This document shows positions 2,567 to 30,129 of a stretch of DNA of 52,585 bases, piece after piece. The first letter of the stretch is position 1, and the number at the start of each line of letters is the position of its first letter. This DNA is from a virus. Taxonomy: Duplodnaviria; Caudoviricetes. The translations under genes were made by a program, and so were the position numbers. The DNA is taken from IMG/VR virus record IMGVR_UViG_3300035158_000483, positions 1 to 52,585 of that record; one strand, 5' to 3'. The notes beneath the pieces are model-generated. The model did not search any database and was not told where the DNA came from. It saw only the letters and a program-made list of their open reading frames with translations.

Positions 2567-5415
2567 ACGAACTCCCTCAGATCCGCCTTGGCCACCAGTT
2601 CGGCTCTCTTGAAGCTCATCTGTACGGAATGCACGATGTAGTTACTGTAGACCTCCGGGCCGCCGTCGTGAGGCGTGTAGCGCATCTCAAGCGCATCCTC
2701 CGGCTCCCAGTGCAGTTGAGCAGCCGACGTCGGCTGCCGTGATCCAGCCTGCGACACAGCATCACGCACCATCCTCTGAGCCTCTTTGTAGGCTTCCTCT
2801 TCTTCCAGGCTCGGACAGTGGTAGGCCACAAAGTTGAGGCCGTACCGCTGCGCAGCCTCGTGGTCGATGTAGTCGCAGATCTCGGCGCCGATGATCCGGA
2901 TGTGCGTCGGTATGCGGTCCGTCTGTGTAATCCCATCCTCGTAGATGGACAGGTGCGTGCCGCCGGCGGGGAACTCAGCATCGCCGGCGCGGTGATCCGT
3001 GAACGTGCCAAGCCAGTGCTCCCATCCACTCAACTCCTCCTCGTCGTACTTGAGGGAAGCGTAACCGAAGCGGAGCACTGGCATCGCCTCGCGGTTGCCG
3101 CCCCCATCGGTCACGTACCGGACTGTACTGATGAACTTGATCCTCCTGTCCTCAATCGCGCGTTTCAGGCCGGCCAGGGCGCTGTTTCGGGAGTCTAAGA
3201 TCGTACTGTCCTTGAGCGCCCATAGCTGTGGCTGCGTGACGCGAATGTTGTCGGGGTCGTGGTCGCCGGTGCGAATGCACACGTAGCCGGCCTTGAGCAG
3301 CGCATCCTCCCATCCGTCTGTGTCGTAGCCGTAGACCGGGCCGCAGGCCAAGGTCTGCGCCTGGGCACCGTTGATGTAGGCGGTCACAAAGCGTTCGTGA
3401 GCAACAACGCGCACCGTCTTGCCGAGCATTGATTCGTCCAGCACGGCTTCATCTACCTTGACCCAACCAGAGGTGTCCTGACTCGTCTGCCAGAGCTGCA
3501 CCTTGGGTGTACCGGATACGTTGATGTAGTTGAATGCCAGTGCGGAGACCCCGGATAGTGATGTCCAGTCGCTGACTGACTTGGAACTGACTCGGAAGAT
3601 CACCTGGAATGTGTCATCATCGCCCCACTGGTCCAGCTCCTGGTGTAGCTCGAACGTCAGGTAGAAGTTTTTGACGTACAGGTCCTCGCCATCCACCGTG
3701 GGTATCCAGACGGTATCCCACTCGTTAAACGTGAACTCAGGGACGGTATAGTCCACGGACAGGGCTGTGTCGAAGTCGAGCACGCCGGCCTTGGCCGCGA
3801 TGTCCTTGAGCACCCATTCGAGCGTCTTGTCGTGCTCGTCGTCATAGGCCCACACGCCCTTGAGGACGATCTGATCGTTGTTGTGCTGCCGGACGGTCGT
3901 GCCGCGAGGATGGTCTTCCCCCTTGTCGCTCATTCCGCTACCGCGACTAGACACTTTGAACCCAGGTATCAGGAAGAAGTAGGATGCTCCCACATTGCCA
4001 CCGGACGAGGGCGTCAACGCATCCCAGTCCTCTTCTTTGCAATGACCGATTGTGATCTTGTCTACCCCGCCATCTACTGTCCAGGCAGTAATCTCTTCGG
4101 TAACTCCCAATCCGCCGCCGTCCATCACGCACAAGAGCCAACCGTACCCATCACCATCATTGCTCCAGTTAGAACCAGCAGTCTCTCGGGCAGATTCAGT
4201 CTGGCTTTTGAGGACCTGTCCGGAGACACGCTCTGTCATCATTGAGTAGTGCGAACGCCAATCGCTTTGGGTGACCTGCTCAAGCTCCATCTCCTCCTCA
4301 CCCATATGCAAGGGGGCACCGCCTTCCTCGAACCATTCGTAAGTGTCCTTGTTGGAAAAGCCGGAAGCCTCACCGTGATCGTCCGGCTCCGAGTCGTAGC
4401 TGTCCCAAGGCCCTTCGGTTTCGTCCGGCCACTGCCCCAGGTCCCGCGCTAGATGCCTCTCAGCAGCTCGGACGTGCATCACCTTGGTTTCCGGGACGGA
4501 AATGTTGCAGATGATCCCCACCTTGCCCCGATCGAAGCTCCAACCGCTGTACGCTTCGTCACCGTGGCGCACCATCTTGTGGGGTTGTCCCCACATATGC
4601 TCCAGTCTCGCCAGCTCTGTTCGCGTGGGCGAACCTGAGCTTGCGAAGTGGAACACGGTGGCAATCAACTGGCGACCGCGACGCTTCAGCTTCACCTCGA
4701 ACAGCTCGCCGTGCTTGAGGTTTGAGGTGTCAGACAAAGCCACAGACGCCAGCTCATACCACTTGTTGTTGTCGGCCTTCCCGTATCCGCTGGCGTTCCA
4801 GTCCTCGGCGCCGCGATAGAGCAGGTACAGCTTGCCAGTCACCGCGTCCACCCAGGCCGCGATGACGTTGTACTGGTCGAAGCCACAGCCGACGACGCCG
4901 AAGCCGTGCCCCAGGCGCTGAGGGCCGTGTGTGGGGGAGAGATCGTAGCCCATCCCGAACATCGCCCCACCAGCATCGTTCTCCGGCATAAACCGCGCCT
5001 TGACCGCGAAGTCCTTAGCGTCGAAGGGCTGTGTGGCGAAGGCAATCAGCGGCTTGTTGTAGGTCGCGAAAATCTGCCGGTTGTCCTCTAGCTCCTCTAT
5101 CTCGGTCTGGTCGATCTGCGCGGTCTCACCGTCCTCGCCCTCTACGGTGATCTGCCCCGCACTGACTGAGTACAGCTTGTCCACGAGGCCCAGGTTGTCA
5201 TCGTAGTGCTTGATCTGCGACAGCCACTGCCAGTCCTGGGAGCTGGCCCAGTCCCTGAGCATCCTCCAGATGATGTCCCTGCTCTTGAAGGAGAACTCGC
5301 GTGCTCCTGGTGCGTAGCGTGTGGGGATGGAGTCTATGGCCTCTACGGAGATGATGTCCATCTGCCCGTTGTATCCAGCCTTGCGCCAGAGCCATAGGCC
5401 GGGGAAGATCGCCAT
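2563..5415 (-). CDS. Large minor tail/baseplate protein (950 aa), probably the C-terminal part of a gene split by one in-frame TAA
   Basis: Acidic, Trp/Gly-rich, beta-type composition; located downstream of the tape measure; in frame with 5485..7227. Confidence 0.65.
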   Translation of the reverse strand: MAIFPGLWLWRKAGYNGQMDIISVEAIDSIPTRYAPGAREFSFKSRDIIWRMLRDWASSQDWQWLSQIKHYDDNLGLVDKLYSVSAGQITVEGEDGETAQIDQTEIEELEDNRQIFATYNKPLIAFATQPFDAKDFAVKARFMPENDAGGAMFGMGYDLSPTHGPQRLGHGFGVVGCGFDQYNVIAAWVDAVTGKLYLLYRGAEDWNASGYGKADNNKWYELASVALSDTSNLKHGELFEVKLKRRGRQLIATVFHFASSGSPTRTELARLEHMWGQPHKMVRHGDEAYSGWSFDRGKVGIICNISVPETKVMHVRAAERHLARDLGQWPDETEGPWDSYDSEPDDHGEASGFSNKDTYEWFEEGGAPLHMGEEEMELEQVTQSDWRSHYSMMTERVSGQVLKSQTESARETAGSNWSNDGDGYGWLLCVMDGGGLGVTEEITAWTVDGGVDKITIGHCKEEDWDALTPSSGGNVGASYFFLIPGFKVSSRGSGMSDKGEDHPRGTTVRQHNNDQIVLKGVWAYDDEHDKTLEWVLKDIAAKAGVLDFDTALSVDYTVPEFTFNEWDTVWIPTVDGEDLYVKNFYLTFELHQELDQWGDDDTFQVIFRVSSKSVSDWTSLSGVSALAFNYINVSGTPKVQLWQTSQDTSGWVKVDEAVLDESMLGKTVRVVAHERFVTAYINGAQAQTLACGPVYGYDTDGWEDALLKAGYVCIRTGDHDPDNIRVTQPQLWALKDSTILDSRNSALAGLKRAIEDRRIKFISTVRYVTDGGGNREAMPVLRFGYASLKYDEEELSGWEHWLGTFTDHRAGDAEFPAGGTHLSIYEDGITQTDRIPTHIRIIGAEICDYIDHEAAQRYGLNFVAYHCPSLEEEEAYKEAQRMVRDAVSQAGSRQPTSAAQLHWEPEDALEMRYTPHDGGPEVYSNYIVHSVQMSFKRAELVAKADLREFV

Positions 5416-5484
5416 ATCTCCATCGGCGTCCAGGTAACGGCCCAGGTAGCCCGTGCTCTCAGTGACTGGGTAGTGCTTGCCGTG

Positions 5485-7227
5485 TTATGCGGCCACCTTG
5501 GTTGTACCGCTGTTCTCGCTGCTCGCCGGCGAGAGGTTCCACGTCCACGATAGCAGGTCTAGGTCCGGCTTGATCTCCCTGATGATGTCGTCGTAGTGCC
5601 CGTCACCGATGAACCGGTAGCCGCCCATCAGCCAGGTGCGATGACCCCGCATCACCGTGCTCCCGCCAGGGTAGTAGCAATACTCGCCGTAGACGATGAT
5701 CTTGGAGCGTTGCGAGTCCGAGCAGAGGTATGAGTAGCGGTCCAGGCTCCAATGCACGCCATCCTTGGACCGCAGCGCCACGTCGTGGGCCTGAGCGTAA
5801 GCACCGGTCGTCCCCCCTCGGGAGATGCGCCCTGTGGCCCACATCACGTCCTCACCGGAGATGTCGGGGATGAAGCTCAGGTTGGAGATGCGAATGTAGT
5901 TGTGATCGTCCACGATGTCCAAGGGGACGATGGGCTTCGGGTCCGACCACACGCCGTCCTTATAGTTGATAATCAGGGGGAGACCGTTGGTGCGCGAGTT
6001 GACGACAATCACGTCGTGGTCACCCATCGTCTCGGCGTCGAACCACTGCAGGGCCGAGGCGTTGTAGTCCTCGTCCACCGGTATCTCGTGGGGACAGGGC
6101 TCGACTACGCGAGCCGCGTGGTTGATCCGGATGGTGATCGTGTCCACCTCTGCGACGCCATTGGTGATCTCGGCCAGGACCTGCAGGCGCACTCCGAAGA
6201 AGGAGCTGTTGACGATCTCAGGCGTGAAGGTGCCCTGCCACGTCCCATCACCTACAGGATCATCGAAGGTCAACGTCGTCTCCGTGTCCCATACGGCCCC
6301 ACCACTGGCCCCTGTGCCGATCTGGCCACCAACCCCGATGAAGTGTAGGTCTGACACGGTGATGCTCTGACCGGATCCCTTGCATTCGATCTCAACGCGC
6401 AGACTGGTGATGAAGTGATCCGAAGGGATGGAGAAGCCGAAGTCGGTCACTTCCAGGTAGTCACTGGCCTGAGTGCTCATATCTGGTGTCATACTCGCTG
6501 AGGCATAAGCGTCGTCCGAGCCGTACGTGTTCCCCACGTTCGTCCAGGCCGGCGTGTCCCCACCTGGATCAACGTTGGCGGCCGCTGATGGTGTGGCCGA
6601 GCTGGATGTTTCGTTGACGTGATCGTAGGTGATCTTTTTGAGCTGCAGGTACTTGAACGGGTCGTGCTCGTGCAGAGTTAGTTGGTACAGGTTACGCCAT
6701 CCCGCCGGCGCGAAGGCCACCTTGTCATCGCCCACCCCGTAGGTGTTGCCGAAGCTCTCCCCGCCAGTCAGATTCGTGCCCACCACGTCGTGGGTATACA
6801 CGTTGCCGCCGAGACCGTAGAACATTCGGACCCCGTTGCGCCAGGGCAGCCAGACCAACCCCATCCTCTGAGGAACCGAGGGGTAGAGGCCGCTCTGCCC
6901 ATACTCCCAGGACCAGAAGTTGGAGTTGGCTCCATCGCCCGTTTCCCAGGCCGTGTCCATATAGAAGCCCTGAACAGCATGCAGGTAGTATTTGCCGTTG
7001 ACATCATCGGCCCACACACGGTAGACGTTGTATGAGTCGGATTCGATGTCGAACGGACACTGCGCCACGCCGTCTGCATCGTACAGGGCAGGGAAGCCGG
7101 GTGCCCAGGCCGCGGTCTGCCAGTCTTGATCCAGGCGTATCTGCACGTCGCGTAGGACAATCTCGCTGTCGGGCTCGCGCACCGACTTAGCTTGTTCGGT
7201 CAGGACCTCTGATCGTATGTCTTTCAT
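5485..7227 (-). CDS. Minor tail protein (about 580 aa), possible N-terminal part of the split gene
   Basis: ATG 7227 (MKDIRSEV) overlaps the TGA of 7224..7631. Contains an Asp-box-like ALRSKDGVHWS. Confidence 0.65.
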   Translation of the reverse strand: MKDIRSEVLTEQAKSVREPDSEIVLRDVQIRLDQDWQTAAWAPGFPALYDADGVAQCPFDIESDSYNVYRVWADDVNGKYYLHAVQGFYMDTAWETGDGANSNFWSWEYGQSGLYPSVPQRMGLVWLPWRNGVRMFYGLGGNVYTHDVVGTNLTGGESFGNTYGVGDDKVAFAPAGWRNLYQLTLHEHDPFKYLQLKKITYDHVNETSSSATPSAAANVDPGGDTPAWTNVGNTYGSDDAYASASMTPDMSTQASDYLEVTDFGFSIPSDHFITSLRVEIECKGSGQSITVSDLHFIGVGGQIGTGASGGAVWDTETTLTFDDPVGDGTWQGTFTPEIVNSSFFGVRLQVLAEITNGVAEVDTITIRINHAARVVEPCPHEIPVDEDYNASALQWFDAETMGDHDVIVVNSRTNGLPLIINYKDGVWSDPKPIVPLDIVDDHNYIRISNLSFIPDISGEDVMWATGRISRGGTTGAYAQAHDVALRSKDGVHWSLDRYSYLCSDSQRSKIIVYGEYCYYPGGSTVMRGHRTWLMGGYRFIGDGHYDDIIREIKPDLDLLSWTWNLSPASSENSGTTKVAA

Positions 7228-7631
7228 ACCGCTACGAGCTCCACTTCGGCCCAAAAGACGGCATTGGTGCCGGATAGCATCGGGGATCGGTTCTCAAACT
7301 TCAAGTCCCCAACGAATACCACGTTGTGTGTCTTGCTGTCGTCCGTCTCGGTCAGCGTGAGCACGTTGTTGGGCGGGTTTCCGAGACGGAAGATCGCCTC
7401 CAGATCGGCCTTGGTGCCATAGCTGCCGCCATCCGGATCGGTCTCGTAGACCTTCAGCAGATACTTGAAGCGGTCAAGGACCGGCGCCGATTGCACATCA
7501 ATATGGCCAGTGACCGTCACCCTCACCGTGCTCTTCTTCTCGATGATCGGTCTGTGGCCCTGAGACAGGACCCGGAAGTGCTTCGGGTCTTTGGTCGGTG
7601 CGTCTAGTGTGATGTAGCCGTTGATCGCCAT
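7224..7631 (-). CDS. Distal tail-like protein (135 aa)
   Basis: Short ORF immediately after the tape measure, translationally coupled on both sides; call is by synteny. Confidence 0.5.
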   Translation of the reverse strand: MAINGYITLDAPTKDPKHFRVLSQGHRPIIEKKSTVRVTVTGHIDVQSAPVLDRFKYLLKVYETDPDGGSYGTKADLEAIFRLGNPPNNVLTLTETDDSKTHNVVFVGDLKFENRSPMLSGTNAVFWAEVELVAV

Positions 7632-10600
7632 TAGTAGGGTAGCCCCCCTTCACGCGGTGGCAGACCACTTGGCGTGTTGTAGTTGTCCAGGATCGCCCCG
7701 GCCTCTTGCAGCAATTCCACGAGTCCGTCGATGATCTCGTTGTTGAAGTCGGTGGCCATCGTCGCGATAGAGCGTTGGATATTGGTGTAGCGTTCTTGGA
7801 GTTCGCGCATCGCTTCAGCGTGCGCCGCGGACAAACCAGCCTGCCGCTCTTGGAACTCCAACTGCTCCGCCTGGTGCTCGCGCTGCAGGGTCGTGATCTT
7901 CTGCTGATGCTCGTACTCCTCCTGATAGGCCGCCTTCCGCTCCTCTAGCTGCTTCATTCGCAGGGCGTGGGACTCCTGCGCCTGGGAGACACGTAGGGCG
8001 TGCGACTCCTTGGCGTGCTCCTCGCGCATATCGAACTGCTCCAGGCGCAGTTCGTGGAGTTTCTGGTTACGCTCCTTGAGCTCCTCCAGGTTCTCCTTCT
8101 TGCGCTCGAAGTCCTCTTCTTCCCACTCACGGCGTTGCTCCATTCGATCTTTCTCTTCCTGCAGATCCGTGGTCTCCCACTTGCGCCGTACGACGTCGCG
8201 CTCCCGTTGCCGCATCAGCCGCTCACGCTGGTAGCCAGTGGCCCGACGAATGTTCTCGTCGTAGTCCTCCATTCTCCAACCGAACTCGATGGCGGAGCGC
8301 CCGAATTGCTGGTGCCAGTCCTGCATCTTCCAGCCGTAGACCGTCGCGGCGCGCTCGCGCTGTCTTTCCAGATCCTCGAACTTGTCCTCCATATCCTCTT
8401 GTTGGAAGCCCCAACGGGCCATATACATTCGCCTGCTGAGGCCCGTGCTCTCCAGGGTGTGTCGCAAGCTCAGGCCAGCGCTTGCCATCGTGTGCGCCAG
8501 CGACATATTGGCTTGCTGTGCTGAGAAGTTGAAGGCTCCAGTGTAGGCCCTGCCGCTGATCGGGCTGATACCGCCCATCTGCTGCACGTAGTTGAATCGC
8601 CTGCTCACGTCTTGCAGGCCCCACAGACTGTCGGGGCCTGGAGCGGTGGGCGTACCGCCGCCCCAAAGATATCGTCTCTGAGCAGCGATACGCTCCATCT
8701 GCAGGCCGGCTTGGGCCTGGGAATAGCGCGTGTTCTCAGCCGTCATCGCATCCTGGAGGCCCCACAGCGTGTTCATCCCCCAACCGCCGACGTAGTTGCC
8801 GTTGGCTCGTGCCTGAGTCAGCCGCTGCTGCGTCGCCCGTAGGGCTGATCCCCAAGAGGAGATGCTCATACCGCCGAATCCGGGCGTCGGGGCAATCTGG
8901 CCGATCATCCCGATGGCGTTGTTGAGGGCTGTGCCGGAGACGACGGGCAAGCCGCCACTCGCAGCTGCCTCGAAGATCTCGGTACGCCCGACACCCAGGC
9001 GAGTGGCCGCACCCCACCGGCCGGCGATCTCCATACGGCGATTGACCTCAGCCATCTCCAAGCCCTTCATTTGCGAGTAGGCTTTCTGCCAGTCCGTGCC
9101 CAAGTAGCCCATCTGCCCCGCTTGCTGTGACCACCACCGAGGCCCTCGGCCAGTGATTGCGCCGGACTGGATCACGTCGCTTTCCAAGATTTCTCTTGGC
9201 GTCATCTGCCCCACAGCGCCAGGCGTCATCTCGTAATACTCACCGATCATCTCGGCTGCTCGCTCTGCTGTGACACCCTCGGGACGATAGGTCTTCGCAG
9301 CGTACTGGATAGAAGCTGCTCGTTCAGCGGCTGTCATACCTTGGAACCTGCCAGCCTTCAGACGCCTTCCCTTGTAGTACAGCCTGGTGCCTTCGGGGGT
9401 CAGACCGAGTACGTTGGGGTCCTGCATCATAGCGACACGCGGGTCATTCGGCGTCCCCCGGCCAACCTCTGTCGGTACGTCGGCCATTATCGCCCCACCG
9501 ATCCCGCCCATCCCGCCAGCCGTAGCACTCATATGCGTGAGGTTGTAGAACCACCCTCTGTCCTCTCTGGTGCCTGCGACCTGCGGTTGTCTGTAGTATT
9601 TCTCCGTGGCCACGCCGCGCTTGCCCTGAGCGAGATTGAGGGCCATCTGCTCCTGGTCGCCGCGCATACTCTTGATGTAGCTGTAGAGCCCATAGCCACC
9701 AGCGGCCAGCGCAACGGGGAGCCCAACGCCGGTGAAGGAGCCGCCGAGCATCGTGGCCAGCGTGCCAGCTACCGCCCCTGTGCCGAGGGCAGGGAGGCCA
9801 ACGCCAGCCGCCGCACCGCCTGTCTGAGTCGTTAGGAACTGTTGAATGTCACCGTAGGCGCGATAGGCAGCCCTGCCCATTGCAACCTGTCCAGCTTTCT
9901 TCTGAGCTTGCGCCTCCATCAGCCCCATTCCGATCCCGCTTACGGGAGCCGCGCTTACGGGCATCGTGGCCGCGGCCGCGCCCATCATCGTCTGTGCGCT
10001 CTCAGCCGCAACGGGGATATTGCCCATCGCGACGCCACCGGTCATTCCCCATAGCCGGCGCATCATCATCAGCCGCCAACCAGAGGTCAACTGCCCCATC
10101 ACCCTATCCACGCCCTTCATCGGCCCCTCGGCGCCGAAGAACGAGGTCTTGAACCACTCGCCAATGCCCCCGCTAGGAGCTGCCCCTTCCAGGCTACGCG
10201 CCCAGTCATCCTCGCTGGCCTGGATCATCTGCCGGTAGGCGTCCGAGCCTTTCAGCCGCATAGCCGCTGTCGCAAGGCCCACGTCGCCGGTCTCCTGCGC
10301 CTGCTCGAGGGCGCTTCCGGTCACGCTCTGGACCTCCCTGGCCAGGCGCTCTGTCCATTGCTTCTGCGCGTCGCTCAGCTCCTGGGTGTTCTTCACAGCA
10401 GGCCCGACCTGCTTGCCCCAGTCCTCCAGATGATCGGCAAGCGTGCGCATACGCTTGTTGAGAAGCTTCGTGTTGTCGACAACGCCATCCTCTGCTACGC
10501 CGACACCGGCTTCCTCGATCGCAGGTATCATCTGTGCAAGCGACGTCTGCCCGATACCGTGGACGCTGGTGACACCCTTCTTGGTAGCGAATCCAGACGC

Positions 10601-13600
10601 GCCGGGCAGTCTCGCAATCTCCCGCCTGCGCTTGACGATGCGCCCGGCCAGCTTAGAGCCGACTCCCTTGACCTGCTGTAGTTGCTCTGCGGTGGCCGTG
10701 TTCAGGAAGCCGAATCCTGTTGTGGTCAATTCGGGTTCAGGTGGAACGACGCTCTCGAAACGCTGTTGCATCAGATCGGCCTGCGCCGTCGCGGCCATCA
10801 TCGGGATGGCCGAGCCGAGCTCGCCCTCCATATAGGTCTTGGCCGTGGTCACGTACTGTTGCATCTCCTGGTTGTTCGATTCGCCAAACCGTGTTGCGCC
10901 CTTCTGTGCGTGACCGAGCCAGGTGGCCATCTGGTTGGCCATCTGCCGGTAACCTGGCGTGACCTCGCCTTTGTCCTGGGTGATGGCTTGAGAGGCTTCT
11001 AGGAACTGAGGCCCGTACATCTCCAAGCCCTCTACGGCGGTCTTGAACTTGCTCTTCGACACGCCGAAGGCCCACTCCATCGTGTCCTTTAGGTCCTGAC
11101 CGAGCTTGGCCATCCCTTGTGGCACTGAAGGCCCTTCGTCTGGAGGGCTGCCAGGGGGGCCACCTGGAGGAGGGGGTGGGGCGGCCGGTGGAGCACCGGT
11201 CGTCCTTCTTGGCGGTCCTTGGCTCCCTGCGCCTCCAGCAATCGGCTCTGAGGGAAGTGGAGCTTCGCCGCTCTCCATAAACGCCTGCACGCTGTCATAG
11301 CCCTTCTGCTTGGCCATCCGAGACAGCATCACGGTCCGCTGCATTGCCTGCTCACGCGGATCGCCCTGAGACCAGCCGCCGATGCTCCGCGACGTAACCT
11401 CGCCACCGGTGCCTGTGCCGCCCAGGCTGACGCTGGATCCGGACATCATCCTCTCGACGTCCTCTTCGGGCATACCCATCTGACCGAGTATCTCACCAAA
11501 CAACCCGGGTGCTGCGTCCATCCCGGCCTGTACGCGAGCGGCCAGGGGGTCTGCGTCAGCACGCTTGGACAGTGAGGATCGCCAAGCCTTCGCCCTGGAC
11601 CTGATCGTGTTGAAGAGCTTGCGTTGGTACGGGTCAAGGTTGGAGACTATTTCGTTGACGACGTCTTCCTGCCCGCGACCGAGGGCCATCGCTGTGGCCG
11701 TGAGACCGATCGGGGTCTCTGTCTCCCACTCGCCGGTCAACCGAGCGCGTTGACGCGCCAGCTTGGCACGCTCGAAGTCATCCTCTGCACTGCGCCAACG
11801 CTTGACCAGCTCCTCAGCCTCTCCCCAGTTCCGTCTCGGAAACCCTAGCTTTGCGACCAACTTGGGGCTCAAGTGCTTGGCACTCATCAGCGCCGGCATA
11901 AACGCCTCCTGGATGCCGGCAGGACCAGCGGAGACGTTCAAGTTTGAGAAGTCTCCCTGGCCACCTGGGCCGCCCAATAGCTTGTCGAAGTAGGACGCGC
12001 CGCCCTTGTGCAAGGAGAGCGAGTTCAGCATCCCGACGACCTTCTGCAGCTCAGGCGGCAACTCCTTCGGCGTCTGTGTCTGGCCGTGAATCACTCCGAA
12101 GAACTTCTCGGCCTCTTCTCCGAGGCCCATCGAGCGAGCTACGTGCTCCACGTCCTCAAGGGAGGCGTACGTCGGGCCGATGTACTGTCGGAGTTTGTTC
12201 GTCCAGGCCATCGCAGACCCAACTGTCTCGGCGTCGAGCTCGTGAAGATTGCGGGGGTCCATCGCGGCCCTCAGCTCCTCCAGGTTGCGGAACTTGTGTC
12301 CCCTCGACAGATCCTGGCGCTGCATCTCTTCGACGGCGGTCTGCGCTTGCTTTGCGACGAAGCCTTCTGTTGCCCAGGGGATACCAGGCTCCCCACCAGG
12401 CGTCTGCTGGCCAGGGAGCTTGAGCCGGCCTTCTGGATCGACCTCGCCCATCATCAGGTTCCAGAACAGGTCCTCGTCAAAGTCGCGCCCTAGGGCCTCG
12501 GCTAGCTTGGGGTTGATGACCAGACCAGTACCCTCAGATAGCTGCATCCCGCGCTCTTTGGCGACTTCGGGGTGGATGACGTTGAACATACGGCTCAGGG
12601 GCCAGTCACCAGGCATCGGCTGTCCCATCACGATGGAACCGAGCTTCATCCCTTGTTTCCAACGATGCTCGAACTTGTACTCCCTGGTGCCCTCGATGTG
12701 CCGCTGCGATGGGTCCATCCCGTAGGCTCGCATCACGCGCTCAACCGGTGCTGTGATCTCCGTAGAGGCCAACGCAGAGCTGGAAAGCGCGGGACCGCCG
12801 AACGCTTTGGGGATTGGCGTGCCCAGGGCGCGTCTGAGGAACTTGCGGCTTTCAGCGAGCTTGGACTGTGCGCCGAGCGCCCCCTGTAGGGCTTCCCTAC
12901 GGGCCTTAGAGCCGACTTTCTCGGATAGGCCGAGGAGAGCCTTGCCATAGAGCTGCCCGTACGCCGTGGCCTCTTCTGTGGACAGGGAGCCGGACGCCAT
13001 AAAGCGCAGAGCGTGCGCCGGCGCGGCCAGTACGCCTTCCTCAGTAAGCAGCGGCTTCTGTCCCCACTTGGTCTGTGCCGCCTGTTGCATCACCGCACGC
13101 GCAAGCACGGCCTCTGTAGGCTCCTCACCCTCTTCACCAAGGGACATAGCGCGACCAGCCGCGACAGCTTCCTGGACCGCCTTGGGGTCAGGGGCGATAG
13201 CGTTCTTGGGATACCCGTGCGGGCCTCCGGAGATCGACGCTTTGATGATACCGCTGTACGCCTGCTTGAGGTCGTAGCCTTGCTTGCGAATCTCGCTGAA
13301 GTATTCAGCTACGCCAGGATGCTCAGCGAAGCGTTCCTTGGCAACGCGCTCCAGGCGCTGGACCTCGCGGAAGGGTAGGTGGGCAGGCTCTCGGAGCGCC
13401 CAACCGCGCCGGTACATCTGGAAGAACTTCCCCTTGAGGAAGCCCATCGGCTTCTTGCTCTCCAACCGGTAGTAGCCCTCTCCGATCTCAGTGCGGTCGA
13501 ACGTGTCCTCTGGAAACTGCCAGAGCTGAGACTTGTGGACACTGGGGATCGTGACCGGCTTCTCCGTGTAGAGGCCGCCCTCGCTCTCGGGACGCAGCTT

Positions 13601-15451
13601 CTCCTCGACGAAGGCGTTGTAGAGAGGCTCGCTGACATCTTTCCACGTCTTCTGTTTCATCCCCTCCATCGTGAGATCGTCGTACCCGCGCCGGCGCAGC
13701 GTGGACAGCATCTCGTTAGGGTGTGCCATCCAGTAGGAGTAGGCCAACTGTGTCGGCTCCTTGATCTGCGTCATCCCATAGCCCTTCTCGCCGTGGAAGG
13801 CCGAGGGGCTGCCGACGCCGCTCATAAACTTGCTCCAGAACGTCTTTGAGGACAGTCGGGCCGTCTCAGGGGATGCTCCTTGCTCCATCACAGCACGGAG
13901 CACGCGCCGATCCTCATACTCACCCTTGCGCTCGTTGTAGTAGCGAGCGTTGACGACGCTGTAGTCCTTGAGCTTCGCCCAGTCCCAGTTGCGGCCAAGG
14001 CCGATTTTCAACGGAGCCGCGCCCTCGAAAAGCTCAAGCTTCCCACTGTCACCGGTCCACTCCGTCCCGCGCTTGACGACCTTGGGTTCCATCCCTTCGG
14101 GGAGGGGGATATCGTAGGTGTGGGCGCGCCGTACGGAGCCGATCCAGCCCTGCGGCTGCATCTCTATACCCTCTGGCAGCCACTCGCCCAGGGAGATCAT
14201 CTGGTTGGTGATGACGCCACGGTTCCGGCGCATTGCTGTGGAGCCGAGGCGCAGCGGGGACTGTGCGGTGATGTTCTCTCCCGTCTCGGAGTAGTAGTCG
14301 AACATCTTGTAGACGCCCTGGAGCTGCGTGCGCTTGGCGATCTTGATCAGCCTCGAACGGTCCGAAGGGTCGTAGGGGGAGAGAATACTCTCGCCCTTGT
14401 GAGGTCCTGCCCACAGATCGGTGTAGACGCGGCTCGGCCACAAGCGGGATGCGCCTTGGCGCGTTACGTATCCTTCCGGCCAGTCCTCGGGGTCCATCCC
14501 CTCGACTGAGCCCTCGATGCCCAGGTCAGGTCCTGTCAGGCCGGTGCGGTAGCGGATCTGCTTCGCTGCTGGCAGGTACTTCCAGTGACTAGGCCCCTTC
14601 ATCGTGGCCACCACGCCGAGGCCGCCCTCTACGGGCCGGTAGTCAACCGGGGGCATTCCGCCGAACTCAGCGCCCAGGTTCTCCTTGAGGTAGGATGCGG
14701 CCTGGCCGGCGTTGGCACCTGCGAGATTAGCGCCGGCGAGGCGCTGCGAAAGCTCCTGTCTGGTGAGGCCCCATCCCATAAACGCACCGAGCATCTGCTC
14801 GTAGCCCTGTGTCCCAGGCTGTGCGGAAGGGTCGTAGGGGACTTTGCGGTGGACGTGAGCGCCTACTCTAGCGTTAGGGTCTGCAGACCGGACATTCTGC
14901 CGGAAACCGCTCAGGATACCGCTCTGCCGCTCGGCCTCTGCCTGGACCTGCTCAGGCGTCAGACCTCTGACACGTATGGAGCTAGGGGGTACAACCGATC
15001 TGTTGCGCTTGAGGATACGTCCAGCTCGGGACAGATTACCGCGTTGCAGGAAAGCCGTCGGATCTTCGGTCTGATAGCTCTCCGTGGGCGTAGCGGCCGG
15101 TTGCTGCAACCTGGTGGACTGGCCTCTACCGCTGTACACGCCGACGTCCAGAAACGTGGCCCACCGATCGGCGGCAGTCTTCTGTCGCTCGTGCTCGCGC
15201 ATCAGGTCCCGCTCGCGCAAGTCGAGCTCCATATCCAGTTCAGTTTCCGAGACGGAAGACGATGGGGCTGTGGCACGATCTAACGCGGCCTCGAAGGCCG
15301 TGACGCTCTCGCCCTCTTCTGGCGCGAAGTGGTGTCGAGCGCCTTGCGTGCGATCGTACTCTATTCCCTCTGGATCGTCGGGGTCATCGCCTTGGAAATG
15401 ACGGCCCCTGGCGTTCCAGAGCCAGTCGTCTTTTGAGTAGTCTCTCGTCAT
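7631..15451 (-). CDS. Tape-measure protein (2606 aa) with a putative N-terminal two-barrel RNA polymerase and an internal HhH domain
   Basis: Position after tail tube and chaperones; Ala/Gly-rich hydrophobic stretch and long C-terminal E/R/Q coiled coil. Contains GLVINPKLAEALGRDFDED (aa ~976-994), a Pro-rich linker and LNTATAEQLQQVKGVGSKLAGRIV...VHGIG. Confidence 0.75.
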   Translation of the reverse strand: MTRDYSKDDWLWNARGRHFQGDDPDDPEGIEYDRTQGARHHFAPEEGESVTAFEAALDRATAPSSSVSETELDMELDLRERDLMREHERQKTAADRWATFLDVGVYSGRGQSTRLQQPAATPTESYQTEDPTAFLQRGNLSRAGRILKRNRSVVPPSSIRVRGLTPEQVQAEAERQSGILSGFRQNVRSADPNARVGAHVHRKVPYDPSAQPGTQGYEQMLGAFMGWGLTRQELSQRLAGANLAGANAGQAASYLKENLGAEFGGMPPVDYRPVEGGLGVVATMKGPSHWKYLPAAKQIRYRTGLTGPDLGIEGSVEGMDPEDWPEGYVTRQGASRLWPSRVYTDLWAGPHKGESILSPYDPSDRSRLIKIAKRTQLQGVYKMFDYYSETGENITAQSPLRLGSTAMRRNRGVITNQMISLGEWLPEGIEMQPQGWIGSVRRAHTYDIPLPEGMEPKVVKRGTEWTGDSGKLELFEGAAPLKIGLGRNWDWAKLKDYSVVNARYYNERKGEYEDRRVLRAVMEQGASPETARLSSKTFWSKFMSGVGSPSAFHGEKGYGMTQIKEPTQLAYSYWMAHPNEMLSTLRRRGYDDLTMEGMKQKTWKDVSEPLYNAFVEEKLRPESEGGLYTEKPVTIPSVHKSQLWQFPEDTFDRTEIGEGYYRLESKKPMGFLKGKFFQMYRRGWALREPAHLPFREVQRLERVAKERFAEHPGVAEYFSEIRKQGYDLKQAYSGIIKASISGGPHGYPKNAIAPDPKAVQEAVAAGRAMSLGEEGEEPTEAVLARAVMQQAAQTKWGQKPLLTEEGVLAAPAHALRFMASGSLSTEEATAYGQLYGKALLGLSEKVGSKARREALQGALGAQSKLAESRKFLRRALGTPIPKAFGGPALSSSALASTEITAPVERVMRAYGMDPSQRHIEGTREYKFEHRWKQGMKLGSIVMGQPMPGDWPLSRMFNVIHPEVAKERGMQLSEGTGLVINPKLAEALGRDFDEDLFWNLMMGEVDPEGRLKLPGQQTPGGEPGIPWATEGFVAKQAQTAVEEMQRQDLSRGHKFRNLEELRAAMDPRNLHELDAETVGSAMAWTNKLRQYIGPTYASLEDVEHVARSMGLGEEAEKFFGVIHGQTQTPKELPPELQKVVGMLNSLSLHKGGASYFDKLLGGPGGQGDFSNLNVSAGPAGIQEAFMPALMSAKHLSPKLVAKLGFPRRNWGEAEELVKRWRSAEDDFERAKLARQRARLTGEWETETPIGLTATAMALGRGQEDVVNEIVSNLDPYQRKLFNTIRSRAKAWRSSLSKRADADPLAARVQAGMDAAPGLFGEILGQMGMPEEDVERMMSGSSVSLGGTGTGGEVTSRSIGGWSQGDPREQAMQRTVMLSRMAKQKGYDSVQAFMESGEAPLPSEPIAGGAGSQGPPRRTTGAPPAAPPPPPGGPPGSPPDEGPSVPQGMAKLGQDLKDTMEWAFGVSKSKFKTAVEGLEMYGPQFLEASQAITQDKGEVTPGYRQMANQMATWLGHAQKGATRFGESNNQEMQQYVTTAKTYMEGELGSAIPMMAATAQADLMQQRFESVVPPEPELTTTGFGFLNTATAEQLQQVKGVGSKLAGRIVKRRREIARLPGASGFATKKGVTSVHGIGQTSLAQMIPAIEEAGVGVAEDGVVDNTKLLNKRMRTLADHLEDWGKQVGPAVKNTQELSDAQKQWTERLAREVQSVTGSALEQAQETGDVGLATAAMRLKGSDAYRQMIQASEDDWARSLEGAAPSGGIGEWFKTSFFGAEGPMKGVDRVMGQLTSGWRLMMMRRLWGMTGGVAMGNIPVAAESAQTMMGAAAATMPVSAAPVSGIGMGLMEAQAQKKAGQVAMGRAAYRAYGDIQQFLTTQTGGAAAGVGLPALGTGAVAGTLATMLGGSFTGVGLPVALAAGGYGLYSYIKSMRGDQEQMALNLAQGKRGVATEKYYRQPQVAGTREDRGWFYNLTHMSATAGGMGGIGGAIMADVPTEVGRGTPNDPRVAMMQDPNVLGLTPEGTRLYYKGRRLKAGRFQGMTAAERAASIQYAAKTYRPEGVTAERAAEMIGEYYEMTPGAVGQMTPREILESDVIQSGAITGRGPRWWSQQAGQMGYLGTDWQKAYSQMKGLEMAEVNRRMEIAGRWGAATRLGVGRTEIFEAAASGGLPVVSGTALNNAIGMIGQIAPTPGFGGMSISSWGSALRATQQRLTQARANGNYVGGWGMNTLWGLQDAMTAENTRYSQAQAGLQMERIAAQRRYLWGGGTPTAPGPDSLWGLQDVSRRFNYVQQMGGISPISGRAYTGAFNFSAQQANMSLAHTMASAGLSLRHTLESTGLSRRMYMARWGFQQEDMEDKFEDLERQRERAATVYGWKMQDWHQQFGRSAIEFGWRMEDYDENIRRATGYQRERLMRQRERDVVRRKWETTDLQEEKDRMEQRREWEEEDFERKKENLEELKERNQKLHELRLEQFDMREEHAKESHALRVSQAQESHALRMKQLEERKAAYQEEYEHQQKITTLQREHQAEQLEFQERQAGLSAAHAEAMRELQERYTNIQRSIATMATDFNNEIIDGLVELLQEAGAILDNYNTPSGLPPREGGLPY

Positions 15452-15744
15452 TCTCGGACCTCGGCAAGCTGATTAGTTGCCTGCAAACTCTCGAATCTGT
15501 TGGCTCCCTCTTCCGCCGCCCACACGTCCTGCATATAACCTGCTGGCTGATCAATCCAGCCACCTTCTCGTGGAAGCCCCCACTTCTCGCACTTCTTGAG
15601 CTCCCGATACGCCGGCGGCACGTCCGGCAGGTTGGGTTCTACGTAGATCGTCCTGTGCTGCTGTGCGTCGAAATGCTCCTGAATGGCCGTAAGGTAGTTG
15701 AAAACCTCGTCCGCAATCGCTGCTCTACGGCCTTCAGGCGTCAC
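15448..15744 (-). CDS. Tail assembly chaperone, second (gpT-like) ORF
   Basis: Lies between the gpG-like ORF and the tape measure. WGLPREGGWIDQP is typical of pre-tape-measure ORFs. It sits in the +1 frame relative to 15770..16174. Confidence 0.6.
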   Translation of the reverse strand: MTPEGRRAAIADEVFNYLTAIQEHFDAQQHRTIYVEPNLPDVPPAYRELKKCEKWGLPREGGWIDQPAGYMQDVWAAEEGANRFESLQATNQLAEVRE

Positions 15745-15769
15745 CCATACCTCGTCTGTGTCGGGGTCT

Positions 15770-16174
15770 CTAATAACCCCGAAACGGATACTGCCAGTCC
15801 GGATTGACTTCGCGGACTAGCATCACCCATTCCTTGATCAGTGAGTCGGGCGGGTTGATCTCTTGAATGCGACTCTTGAACTCCTCGAGGGGCACGTCGT
15901 CCTTCTCGAACAACGGCTGGCCCCCAACGGTCAGGTTCGTCCCTGCGAACGTCAGGGCGATCTCCTCCAACCAGAGCGTGCGGTTGTTCAGTGTGGTATC
16001 AATGCGCAGCGTCCCATCCGGCTCGTACGCCTCGGAGCGTGCTTTGAGGAGCTCGGCTCGGTGGGCGTTCTCGACAAATCCGGCCGGCTCGATGCGTACC
16101 CAGGTGTCACCGTCTTCGTCCCACTGTTCCAGGTACTTGGTCTGAGGCTCTACCGGCTGAATATCTCTAGGCAT
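15770..16174 (-). CDS. Tail assembly chaperone (gpG-like, 134 aa)
   Basis: Synteny tail tube - G - T - tape measure; AAGGAG ribosome-binding site. Confidence 0.6.
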   Translation of the reverse strand: MPRDIQPVEPQTKYLEQWDEDGDTWVRIEPAGFVENAHRAELLKARSEAYEPDGTLRIDTTLNNRTLWLEEIALTFAGTNLTVGGQPLFEKDDVPLEEFKSRIQEINPPDSLIKEWVMLVREVNPDWQYPFRGY

Positions 16175-16231: not shown

Positions 16232-17299
16232 CTACGGGGTCGGCCAGGCGTATGATTCTTGATCGTTGACGACCGTGATCTGGAACGGGTCCCCGCTCGC
16301 TGGCTCCTTCAGCACGCCGACCATCGGACAGTAGAGGATGCTGTTGCCCTGCAGTCGGAGCTGCCCGTCTACGCTCCAGTCAACTTCGGGGGCCGTGATC
16401 TCAATGCTGTAAGGCGTGCTCGTACCCGAGATGTTGTTGGGCGATTCCAGCTTCGCCGCGACGTTGGTGGAGTACACCGAAGGCGTCCACTCCGTGCCGT
16501 CAACGGCGCCGGTGTAGACCTGTTGCCACAGATCGGGATCGGCCCACTTGTAGATGAATCGGAACGCGAGATCGCGCTCGATGGCGACGAGATCGTCGGG
16601 GTGGTAGCTCCCAATGACCATCTCGTCCTGTAGCCGCGCAGCACTCAGCTGATTCATCAGCGTGATCTCAACCGACCTCGCTTCCAGCGCTTCAGCCGAA
16701 AAGTCAGGCAGCTTGAAGTAGCCGCTGTTACCGGTCGGGATGCTCTGCGTGTCCTCGAAGGTGTTCTCGTAGGTCCACCCGGATGGGTTTTCCTCGAACG
16801 AAGGCTCGCGGCCCAACACGCCGACCTGACACGTCAGCGGTGCCATAGCCGCCATCGAAAAGACAGCTTGGGCCACCTTGCAGTCCTGCAGAATCTCCCC
16901 AATCGAGTCGCTGGCCGTAGCCCCAGGGATGAACTTGTGCATCGTCAGCCAGGGCAGGTAGGCGTGATCCGTGGACTTAGGCCGGAAGATATGCGTGTGA
17001 CAGCCAGCTTCCGGCGTGTCGCTGGCGGTCGATACGTCGCCGGTCATCGCGTACAGGAGCCAGCCGAAGACGTTCTTGATCCTGGGCTGGATCGTCGCTG
17101 TGCCGCCCACAAGCGAAGCGGTCTTGCGCTGACCGACATTGAACACGCTCCCACCAACCTCCGGTGCCCACCTCTCGGCTTGCTCAATCGCACCCAGGTT
17201 GATGTCGAGCGTCTTGTGTCGATAGAACGTGGTGGCCAGGGACTTCTTTGCAGTCTGTCCCCCATAGGCCAGCACGCCGTTTCTGGAAGAAACACTCAT
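16232..17299 (-). CDS. Major tail tube protein (355 aa)
   Basis: Synteny, strong AAAGGAGAG ribosome-binding site, tube-like features (HTHIFRP, final ITVVNDQESY) and a downstream GC hairpin at ~16194-16217. Confidence 0.75.
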   Translation of the reverse strand: MSVSSRNGVLAYGGQTAKKSLATTFYRHKTLDINLGAIEQAERWAPEVGGSVFNVGQRKTASLVGGTATIQPRIKNVFGWLLYAMTGDVSTASDTPEAGCHTHIFRPKSTDHAYLPWLTMHKFIPGATASDSIGEILQDCKVAQAVFSMAAMAPLTCQVGVLGREPSFEENPSGWTYENTFEDTQSIPTGNSGYFKLPDFSAEALEARSVEITLMNQLSAARLQDEMVIGSYHPDDLVAIERDLAFRFIYKWADPDLWQQVYTGAVDGTEWTPSVYSTNVAAKLESPNNISGTSTPYSIEITAPEVDWSVDGQLRLQGNSILYCPMVGVLKEPASGDPFQITVVNDQESYAWPTP

Positions 17300-17312: not shown

Positions 17313-18377
17313 TTAGGTTAAGGCGCAGTAGGCGTCTAGCCATTTGCGCCAGTGTTTTTCAGTTGCTCGGTGTTCGATAACCCACTCGTGACCCTGCTTT
17401 TGAAGACGTCGACGCAAGCGCCAGTCCTCGATCAACTTGGCGATCTGTGCGTACCACTCGTCGCTGTCGTAGTGGTCCCTGACGAAAAGGGCGTTGTGAC
17501 GGTTGTTGCACACACGGCGATACACCTTGCAGTTCGTGACGACAGGCACCGCACCTCCGAAGCTTCCGTCACGGAGAGGCCGCTTTGAGGCCATATACTC
17601 CAAAGCCTTGATGCCAGACTTGCTCTTGTTGAAGCGATCATCCGGCTCCAAGGGGGCTAGGCCGATGTCGATCTGGCGGATCAAGGCGGGGTAGCTCTGG
17701 AAAGGCACTTTGGCACCGATCGTCAGGCGGGGCAGCTCCTTGAGATAGTCCGGCACGAAGCCGCCTATGAAGAAGCGCACGTTGGGATGGTCCTCTGCGA
17801 TCTTCCGCAGGGCAGGTCCGACTGGTCGCCAGTCGTCTGCGTGAGTATCTGTGCCGACAATCCCTACGGTGAGCGCGTCGTCCACACGGTGCTCGTCTGG
17901 AGCGAAGGGCTCCCACATCTCCGGTACAATCGTGTTGGGCAGGACAAAGACCTGCTCGTTGTACCGCTCCATCACATCGCGCAGGTAAGGCGTAGAGGCG
18001 GTGCCAGCCGTGCAACGCTCCAGCACGCTGGTCGCTATCCCCTCGCCGGTGACCTCTCTGTGCGAGTTGGTATAGTCGTCATCCCACTCACACACGACAG
18101 CCTTGCCGGCTTTCTGGAGCGTCGCGATGAACGTCTCGGCCTCGCGCTCGTGGCCAAGAGGGGCGATAACCCTGGCCAGCACGAAAACGTCATACGTGGC
18201 TGGGTCTAGGTGCCCCATCTGCGTGGCCCTGAATGCCCGATCAATCGGCATCCAATCAGCCTGATAGCCGTGCTCGCTCAGCTTCCGATACGGAAAGATG
18301 ATGCGATAGGCATCGCAGGCCGTTGGCCCGTTCTTGCGCTCGCCAGCGAACAGCCCCAGCACTCTAGGCTTCGTCAC
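17313..18377 (-). CDS. Glycosyltransferase, GT-B fold/GT4-like (354 aa)
   Basis: Motifs ACDAYRIIFP, VCEWDDD, ASTPYL, VLPNTI and DIGLAPLEPDDRFNKSKSGIKALEY. Confidence 0.85.
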   Translation of the reverse strand: MTKPRVLGLFAGERKNGPTACDAYRIIFPYRKLSEHGYQADWMPIDRAFRATQMGHLDPATYDVFVLARVIAPLGHEREAETFIATLQKAGKAVVCEWDDDYTNSHREVTGEGIATSVLERCTAGTASTPYLRDVMERYNEQVFVLPNTIVPEMWEPFAPDEHRVDDALTVGIVGTDTHADDWRPVGPALRKIAEDHPNVRFFIGGFVPDYLKELPRLTIGAKVPFQSYPALIRQIDIGLAPLEPDDRFNKSKSGIKALEYMASKRPLRDGSFGGAVPVVTNCKVYRRVCNNRHNALFVRDHYDSDEWYAQIAKLIEDWRLRRRLQKQGHEWVIEHRATEKHWRKWLDAYCALT

Positions 18378-24208: not shown

Positions 24209-24464
24209 CTCTGCCCCCCGACCTTCTCCAGTCATAGCCGTCGCTGATCTCCAAGACGCTATGCGCTGAAGCGCGTGTGAAAAGTGCTTTGAATTTCTTG
24301 GCCAAGAAATGCCTTCCGCTTTTGCAGAGCCAGTCGCGTAGGGTAGGGCGGCGGAGTTCGACGCCGTTGACCAGCAAGTAGACACCGTCCTGCGTCTCAA
24401 GCCACTCGACATCTTCCGTCACGGAAAGCTCCTCCTCGGTGTAACTGGCTATTTCACGCATCAT
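24192..24464 (-). CDS. Hypothetical protein (90 aa)
   Basis: ATGA-coupled to the TerL stop. Confidence 0.55.
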   Translation of the reverse strand: MMREIASYTEEELSVTEDVEWLETQDGVYLLVNGVELRRPTLRDWLCKSGRHFLAKKFKALFTRASAHSVLEISDGYDWRRSGGRDGWRR

Positions 24465-29646: not shown

Positions 29647-30129
29647 ATGGCTACCGCTAACACGATCTTGGAGAACGCTTCCGTTGAGCAGATCGCACAG
29701 GTTGACGGCATTGGTGTGGCTCTGGCGCAGCGGATCAAGGACGGGCTGCCGTACGAGGACTTCTCGCATATGGTGGCCACCGTCAATGGCCTGGGCAACA
29801 AGAACAGCCAGGCCCTGCACGAGGCGCTCTCTGAAGCTACCAAGCGAGAGAACGCCACCTACGACGACAGCCGTGAGTATCGCCGTGGCCAGGGCAGCAC
29901 ACGGTGCTACGCCGTGATCGCTCGCTCGGACAAGGGCACGTTCCTGGTAGAGGCCGTCAAGGCTGACCAGCAGAGCGATGTGGAGGAGAAGCACGCTCAG
30001 GCACGTAAGGCTCTGCTGACCTGGATGGAGGAGCGCCCGGACGTGCGCTTCAGCTTGCGCCAGGTGGCTCTGTCTATGTTCAACAACTGGATCAATCAGG
30101 GTAAGCGCTGCCTGCCCCTGACCAACTGA
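29647..30129 (+). CDS. Helix-hairpin-helix DNA-binding protein (160 aa)
   Basis: NASVEQIAQVDGIGVALAQRI...VNGLG is a double HhH. Confidence 0.75.
   Translation: MATANTILENASVEQIAQVDGIGVALAQRIKDGLPYEDFSHMVATVNGLGNKNSQALHEALSEATKRENATYDDSREYRRGQGSTRCYAVIARSDKGTFLVEAVKADQQSDVEEKHAQARKALLTWMEERPDVRFSLRQVALSMFNNWINQGKRCLPLTN

Follow-up and report, generated by a model that had tools for sequence, protein, structure and literature searches.

A ComEA-like double helix-hairpin-helix domain inside a predicted tape measure protein that carries a fused RNA polymerase

The stretch of DNA analyzed here, referred to below as the window, is the full IMG/VR virus record IMGVR_UViG_3300035158_000483 (Duplodnaviria; Caudoviricetes), which comprises 52,585 bases and is estimated to be about 63% complete. 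An uninterrupted frame of 2606 residues on its minus strand (7631..15451) encodes the protein designated P0001, which we interpret as a tape measure protein with an RNA polymerase fused at its N-terminus. All features of P0001 given below lie on that strand. Within the part of the chain that follows the polymerase, P0001 contains a tandem helix-hairpin-helix domain, (HhH)2, of the ComEA/Tex type, located at residues 1583-1643 (10523..10705). On balance we lean toward an interpretation in which this domain is an optional accessory that tethers DNA, independently of sequence, at a point between the fused polymerase and the tape inserted in the membrane.

The double HhH domain of P0001

The Pfam model HHH_3 identifies the domain with a score of 34.4 bits (E 2.4e-8), above the cut-off of 27, in the very scan that a first-pass annotation of the window, made from the letters alone, had proposed as a check. 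A six-frame search of the record likewise places HHH_3 at 10523-10705, with 40.3 bits. Both hairpins keep the characteristic G-h-G pattern, as GVG at residue 1596 and GIG at residue 1632, and both align with the hairpins of the ComEA structure 8dfk, which is the best match to the domain by sequence among solved structures (E 0.0079). The entire ComEA signature takes part in that alignment, in which P0001 has six extra residues between its two HhH motifs relative to 8dfk. Over its 61 residues the domain has 10 Lys plus Arg residues as compared with 2 Asp plus Glu, for a net charge of +8, and the sequences that flank it are acidic.

An AlphaFold2 model of the region covers residues 1560-1669 and was computed from a two-sequence alignment, A5. 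Two other alignments, A3 and A4, in which the short HhH segment was set against full-length relatives, were discarded, as the query had become scattered over thousands of columns. As modeled, the region is a compact, five-helix (HhH)2 fold. VIA-align ranks five (HhH)2 domains highest for the model, namely those of TEFM (Z 9.0), KIF22 (Z 6.6), ComEA 8dss (Z 6.6), Tex (Z 6.3) and the ComEA-related protein 2duy (Z 5.7). Taken with the HHH_3 score and the match to 8dfk, these structural matches bear out the proposal in the first-pass annotation that a ComEA-like double HhH lies inside the tape measure protein.

Orthology of P0001 to ComEA was considered and rejected, as the HhH domain is internal to a 2606-residue phage structural protein and is not a small, anchored, stand-alone protein. 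A 110-residue segment containing the HhH region found no match by tblastn among 50,697 phage records, and a word-index search with the same segment against proteins of 60-193 residues gave seven candidates, none of them significant.

A tape measure protein with an N-terminal RNA polymerase

The P0001 gene sits right downstream of a tail tube gene (16232..17299, minus strand; Pfam Phage_tube_2 31.5 bits, cut-off 27; phrog_290 minor tail protein, E 2.5e-14) and a 134-residue ORF. Because the tail tube gene and the 134-residue ORF lie upstream of it and four further ORFs lie downstream, P0001 occupies the slot of the tape measure gene. The protein itself shows traits expected of a tape measure, in that it is long, has Gly-rich hydrophobic segments, and includes a charged coil. 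The first hydrophobic segment, a weak one at residues 1822-1845 (9917..9988; Kyte-Doolittle 19-mer mean 1.22), falls where the tape moiety is best conserved, according to the consensus of alignment A1, described below. The second, at residues 1880-1919 (9695..9814), is a Gly/Ala-rich segment of about 40 residues whose Kyte-Doolittle mean reaches 1.49, the maximum for the protein; it shows 46% identity to loci of the P0002 type, P0002 being a relative of P0001, and is presumed to be a membrane-inserting hairpin. The highly charged C-terminal coil, at residues 2351-2550 (7802..8401), is composed of 52-68% E, K, R, D or Q in each 50-residue window, and is common to all 66 loci that were fetched for comparison, 16 from viral contigs and 50 from metagenome contigs, several of these being the same contig in both collections.

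Counting the query itself, an exhaustive profile-free search with residues 200-1300 of P0001 collected 29 proteins at E <= 1e-3, of which 20 also pass E <= 1e-30. The 28 relatives at the more permissive threshold are mostly 2000-3000 residues in length. Alignment A1 consists of the 18 full-length proteins (at least 2000 residues) of the 29, leaving out 11 shorter ones, seven of which were used in alignment A2. A scan of P0001 against PHROGs found no family at E <= 0.1, a Pfam scan found no tape-measure match, and a tblastn search with the whole protein against the 50,697 phage records found no match. The family to which P0001 belongs is not represented in the PHROGs and Pfam libraries.

The two-barrel RNA polymerase domain spans residues ~215-1261 (11669..14809), a region conserved with P0002. 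It includes a DFDED metal-binding motif at residues 990-994 (12470..12484), whose three aspartates, D990, D992 and D994, do not vary in any of the 18 sequences of A1; the motif is the sole D-h-D-x-D among ORFs of at least 250 residues in the window. An AlphaFold2 model of residues 200-1300, built from 25 sequences, has a mean pLDDT of 82.8 and a pTM of 0.82, and the top 20 entries by VIA-align for this model are all two-barrel RNA polymerases. These include QDE-1 (Z 9.8, 409 residues aligned), with a match that spans both barrels, vaccinia RNA polymerase subunit B (Z 9.8), and Rpb1 of Pol II (Z 9.4). Among phage proteins, P74 gp62 (Z 8.8), P23-45 gp96 (Z 7.8, 291 residues aligned, 16% identity) and phi14:2 gp66 (Z 5.8) were matched, P74 gp62 belonging to a non-virion paralogue family of P23-45 gp96. 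Residues 17-489 of the model resemble beta-like subunits, as in the match to vaccinia chain B, and residues 677-1009 resemble beta-prime-like subunits, as in the match to Rpb1. Every PDB match listed by Foldseek is a large subunit of a multisubunit RNA polymerase, the best at E 2.4e-4, with low TM-scores, whereas at the level of sequence a phmmer search of the PDB with residues 1-1400 gave no match at E <= 10. From the model and the invariant DxDxD, the N-terminal ~1100-1300 residues of P0001 are very probably a single-chain, two-barrel RNA polymerase, in agreement with the putative polymerase named in the first-pass annotation. No second, non-virion polymerase was detected in the window, from a record about 63% complete, by phmmer or by the scan of ORFs of at least 250 residues for D-h-D-x-D.

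A proline-rich spacer, and a helical block present on both sides of the insertion

Polymerase and tape moiety are joined through a spacer rich in proline and glycine at residues 1409-1447 (11111..11227), in which 11 of 20 consecutive residues are proline. None of 2000 shuffles of P0001 reached this density, the maximum being 10, seen once, and the polyproline hinge noticed in the first-pass annotation is accordingly real as a compositional feature. A 30-residue stretch with a proline plus glycine fraction of at least 0.5 occurs between polymerase and tape in 15 of the 18 full-length relatives, with a minimum of 0.30 across the set, and the spacer of P0001 is the most proline-dense of all. The distance from polymerase to hydrophobic region ranges from 280 to 881 residues across the 18. 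The occurrence of the proline- and glycine-rich stretch in 15 of 18 proteins, together with this variation in length, indicates that a low-complexity spacer, flexible or stiff, is a feature of the family and that a variable slot follows it.

The tape moiety begins with a conserved helical block, block A, at residues 1453-1536 (10844..11095), detected with an i-Evalue of 1.4e-5 by a hidden Markov model (HMM) built from 13 relatives without an HhH domain. Residue F1469 in block A is invariant in A1. The same HMM finds a second copy, block B, at residues 1664-1735 (10247..10462; i-Evalue 1.1e-5), which aligns by BLASTP with the single block of P0002. P0001 therefore has two copies of the block, one on each side of the HhH domain, and a relative, P0022, likewise has two. 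The arrangement suggests that the HhH insert arrived with, or preceded, a local duplication of the block.

The order of parts proposed earlier for P0001, with polymerase, spacer, HhH domain, hydrophobic segments and coil in succession, is the order found. The HhH domain does not, however, stand directly behind the spacer, since a conserved helical block of about 135 residues comes between them, and the hydrophobic segment that follows in the expected order starts only some 180 residues after the HhH domain.

Comparison with characterized proteins

The closest precedent for the architecture of P0001 is gp96 of Thermus phage P23-45, a tape measure protein of 5002 residues with an active virion RNA polymerase at its N-terminus (Chaban et al. 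2024, PMC10770324; PDB 8h2m/8h2n). That polymerase is described as present in virions within full-size gp96, with no processing at a hinge, and as flat and lacking a clamp; transcription of pre-early genes is proposed to take place at the tape-measure pore during DNA entry (PMC10770324). P0001 resembles gp96 in combining an N-terminal, single-chain, two-barrel RNA polymerase bearing DxDxD with a tape measure bearing hydrophobic segments, and in the placement of its gene after one or more tail tube genes, and the mechanism proposed for gp96 fits P0001 as well. The two differ in sequence, their relationship being limited to the catalytic loop, where hhalign superposes DFDED of P0001 on DFDGD of gp96 in an alignment of 27 columns (E 0.12); tblastn and the PDB phmmer search gave no match. 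P0001, at 2606 residues, also differs from gp96 in showing no peptidase match and in carrying both the (HhH)2 domain and the proline-rich spacer. P0001 shares the architecture of gp96 but not its sequence family. The notion of one protein that crosses the envelope and transcribes the DNA as it arrives, put forward in the first-pass annotation, is thus a model already proposed for P23-45 gp96; that such a protein also grips or ratchets the DNA is something we can only infer.

With ComEA of Geobacillus stearothermophilus (8dss/8dfk) and the ComEA-related protein of Thermus thermophilus (2duy), the P0001 domain has in common its HHH_3 family membership, the double HhH and the G-h-G hairpins, and structural alignment gives identities of 31% to 8dss (Z 6.6) and 36% to 2duy (Z 5.7). 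It differs from ComEA in being embedded in a 2606-residue protein predicted to belong to the virion, in its probable cytoplasmic location, and in having no role in competence. Tex (3bzc), Spt6 (7xn7) and TEFM (5ol9) offer a different likeness, that of an (HhH)2 fold accompanying an RNA polymerase. The P0001 domain aligns with that of TEFM at Z 9.0 (74 residues aligned, rmsd 2.7), Tex at Z 6.3 (28% identity) and Spt6 at Z 3.8. Unlike in those three proteins, the P0001 domain is covalently part of the polymerase-bearing chain, and none of their other domains was found in P0001 by Pfam.

Globular insertions in tape measure proteins have precedent, as motifs of peptidoglycan hydrolases occur in mycobacteriophage tape measures. 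As with the M23 peptidase in gp96, the HhH domain is a small globular module within a long, helical ruler protein, delivered to the envelope or cytoplasm upon ejection. Unlike the known inserts, which act on the cell wall, it is a predicted binder of nucleic acid. The literature searched yielded no published account of a tape measure protein that contains an HhH domain; at least one match to ComEA there was in fact the author name Comeau, and one paper that surfaced, PMC10343443, proved unrelated in its relevant passages.

A proposed role at the site of DNA entry

We infer the DNA binding, the location and the role of the HhH domain as follows. In residues 1-1780 the highest Kyte-Doolittle 19-mer mean is 0.88, as compared with 1.49 in the hydrophobic region. 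As there is no hydrophobic segment between the polymerase and the HhH domain, both would lie on the same side of the membrane, and, as the polymerase requires NTPs, that shared side would be the cytoplasm. Once the tape is inserted, therefore, judging from sequence, polymerase and HhH domain should both be cytoplasmic. The Gly-rich hydrophobic segments of P0001 would insert into the cytoplasmic membrane, and the stiff proline- and glycine-rich spacer would link the polymerase to the tape moiety. The HhH domain would bind the sugar-phosphate backbone of the entering double-stranded DNA, with no preference for sequence, and so would serve as a handle for that DNA near the exit of the tape-measure pore. 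By keeping the entering genome close to the tethered polymerase, it may aid both the capture of DNA and processive pre-early transcription.

A more specific proposal can be made, and we offer it tentatively, as possible but doubtful. The HhH domain, of ComEA type and recruited by a phage ejection protein, might be a built-in clamp for an injected polymerase that has none, held beside the membrane pore on a rigid proline spacer, catching the first DNA at the pore, passing it to the polymerase and coupling entry of the genome to pre-early transcription. Were this true, the scattered HhH domains, along with the RNase_T domain of P0002 described below, would point to an exchangeable slot, lying between polymerase and tape, for cargo that handles nucleic acids.

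Distribution of the HhH domain among relatives

Pfam searches at E <= 0.001 against the 18 full-length proteins found HHH in three, HHH_5 in two, HHH_3 in one (P0001 itself) and RNase_T in one (P0002). When the P0001 HhH segment was used in a phmmer search against 33 collected proteins, it matched P0024 (residues 1852-1931, E 1.2e-10) and P0019 (residues 1522-1591, E 1.8e-6), and the three proteins align through both HhH motifs and through common flanks. The site of insertion is constant, the HhH domain following the conserved helical block by 35-45 residues (the block lies at residues 1733-1818 in P0024 and 1391-1476 in P0019). Lineages that share the insert and its flanks have polymerase domains just 24-27% identical overall. 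On a tree of polymerase domains, from which HhH columns were excluded, the three bearers of a double HhH require three changes and fall in both of the major starred clades. The domain is homologous among its bearers and patchy in distribution, which leaves two histories: ancestral presence followed by repeated loss and erosion, or exchange between tape measure genes. In a metagenome fragment, locus L055, an HhH domain is found about 220 residues before the hydrophobic region.

A different module appears in P0002, where residues 63-219, in front of the polymerase domain, match RNase_T, a DEDD 3'-5' exonuclease family, with 70.4 bits; this protein has no HhH domain. The RNase_T domain occurs also in loci L014, L016, L022 and L065. 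Different members of the P0001 family bear different nucleic-acid modules, HhH in P0001 and an exonuclease in P0002.

Several observations weigh against our interpretation of the domain as a DNA tether, and most of them concern its distribution. A double HhH is present in only three of the 18 full-length proteins, with a weak single motif in two more, while the remaining 13, all with the invariant DxDxD, have no HhH. The weak cases are P0010, with a single HhH (HHH_5 27.6 bits, cut-off 27), and P0014 (HHH 14.9 bits; local HMM i-Evalue 0.0019), and in such lineages the domain looks eroded. Neither the closest relative of P0001, which is P0007, nor P0025, a sister of the HhH-bearing P0019, has an HhH at E <= 0.1. 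Among 15 fetched loci that span the hydrophobic region, L055 is the only one with the domain. For P23-45 gp96, Pfam at E <= 0.1 reports Peptidase_M23 only, and no HhH. As most relatives lack the domain, the injection machine must work without it. The structural evidence has its own limits, as the HhH model is of moderate quality (mean pLDDT 63, with 78-82 in the core) and Foldseek found no match to it at E <= 1e-3; its best entries, though above that threshold, were the HhH domains of TEFM, KIF22, NusA, RuvA and XPF. Membrane topology, furthermore, was judged by Kyte-Doolittle hydropathy alone.

These results do not agree with the suggestion, in the first-pass annotation, of a DNA-gripping HhH as a core part of the machine, given that 13 of the 18 homologs that keep the polymerase do without it, P0007 among them, as does P23-45 gp96; absence from homologs of this kind was what that annotation had itself named as refuting its view. 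The HhH domain is an optional accessory of the P0001 family, not a core component.

Alternative explanations

The same domain could act earlier, within the virion, by gripping the leading end of the genome at the head-proximal part of the tape measure, such that DNA is dragged through tail and envelope and any help to transcription is secondary. Such a function would make equal use of the (HhH)2 identity and strongly basic character of the domain, and would suit its position right after the first conserved block of the tape moiety, in the half toward the N-terminus and the head. In siphovirus tails, as is generally known, the tape measure exits ahead of the DNA, which also speaks for it. However, most relatives eject their DNA without an HhH domain, and a folded domain of 60 residues may not fit the lumen of the tube in addition to DNA and tape chains; we regard this explanation as unlikely. 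How the polymerase part is packaged in the virion is left unresolved by the P23-45 authors (PMC10770324).

The domain might also have no consequential role with DNA. It would then be an insert in a variable region, either neutral or in decay, or else serve to bind RNA or protein. The patchy distribution, in which three bearers of the double HhH need three changes on the polymerase-domain tree, would be explained in this way, as would the weak or single remnants in P0010 and P0014 and the variation, from 280 to 881 residues, in the stretch between polymerase and hydrophobic region among the 18 relatives. The best structural match, moreover, is the N-terminal domain of TEFM, and some HhH domains of transcription factors bind RNA or protein. 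On the other hand, the HHH_3 score exceeds its curated cut-off, both hairpins and 10 basic residues are intact in P0001, and insert and flanks have been kept across lineages whose polymerases are 24-27% identical, which argues for selection where the domain is present. An inert or non-DNA module strikes us as quite improbable for P0001. Still more improbable is a ratchet in the periplasm, with the domain outside the cytoplasmic membrane rectifying the diffusion of DNA out of the tail. ComEA itself is known to bind DNA on its way in, either within the periplasm or on the surface of the membrane, and ComEA proteins are the closest characterized relatives of the domain by sequence. The small size and N-terminal anchor of the ComEA architecture are not present, however, and hydropathy between polymerase and HhH domain peaks at 0.82-0.88. 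Because no hydrophobic segment parts the two, they would share a compartment, and the NTPs needed by the polymerase are cytoplasmic.

Gene context and a stand-alone HhH gene

The first-pass annotation had pointed also to a stand-alone HhH gene, which it placed among the first early genes. The gene exists, at 29647..30129 on the plus strand, and encodes a protein of 160 residues with an N-terminal HhH, but the evidence is weaker than for the domain in P0001, as Pfam scores fall below the cut-offs for both HHH_5 (25.4 bits, cut-off 27) and HHH (21.2 bits, cut-off 24). Its best match among solved structures is the ComEA-related 2duy from Thermus (E 0.0032, residues 7-56). By BLASTP it shares 13 of 28 residues (46%, E 3e-5) with the HhH domain of P0001.

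On the minus strand a structural module of siphovirus type begins at about 26.4 kb and extends to base 2, with genes in the order large terminase, SPP1-type portal, major head protein, glycosyltransferase, tail tube, the 134-residue ORF, the 2606-residue ORF of P0001, and four further ORFs. The large terminase (24461-26365, minus strand) matches phrog_2 (E 1.5e-14). It matches Pfam Intein_splicing also, at 38.2 bits (cut-off 35.8) in two stretches, one of them at residues 154-185, and from this sequence match its ATPase part is probably interrupted by an intein. The gene between those for head and tail tube (17313-18377, minus strand) resembles group-1 glycosyltransferases, with a match to phrog_7162 (E 2.8e-23) and Pfam scores slightly under the cut-off. 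Between tail tube and tape measure lie the 134-residue ORF (15770-16174) and a 98-residue ORF in another frame (15448-15744), both on the minus strand; the pair, at 15448-16174, occupies the usual site of the two tail assembly chaperones made by frameshifting. The four ORFs downstream of the tape measure (2-7631, minus strand), of 135, 589, 950 and at least 855 residues, had no match in Pfam or PHROGs at the thresholds used, and presumably encode proteins of the distal tail and its tip, of a type not yet described.

From about 27 kb the plus strand carries early and replication genes, which include a DnaB-type helicase, a loader-like ATPase, a Gp3-like protein and a methyltransferase-helicase fusion. 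In an early protein of 1372 residues (36706-40824, plus strand), a DUF6094 or N6-type DNA methyltransferase is fused to a ResIII/Helicase_C helicase and a C-terminal DUF6573.

Implications for polymerase injection

To our knowledge, virion RNA polymerases fused to a tape measure have been published only for P23-45-like Thermus phages. The P0001 family would be a second such family, unrelated in sequence; metagenomes contain at least 18 full-length members of it, a minority of which, P0001 included, bear an HhH domain. Should the domain turn out to be dispensable or inert, what remains is an ordinary accessory domain. The HhH insert suggests that some injection machines carry their own handle for DNA, and its 60 residues provide a testable entry into the coupling of genome ejection to the first transcription.

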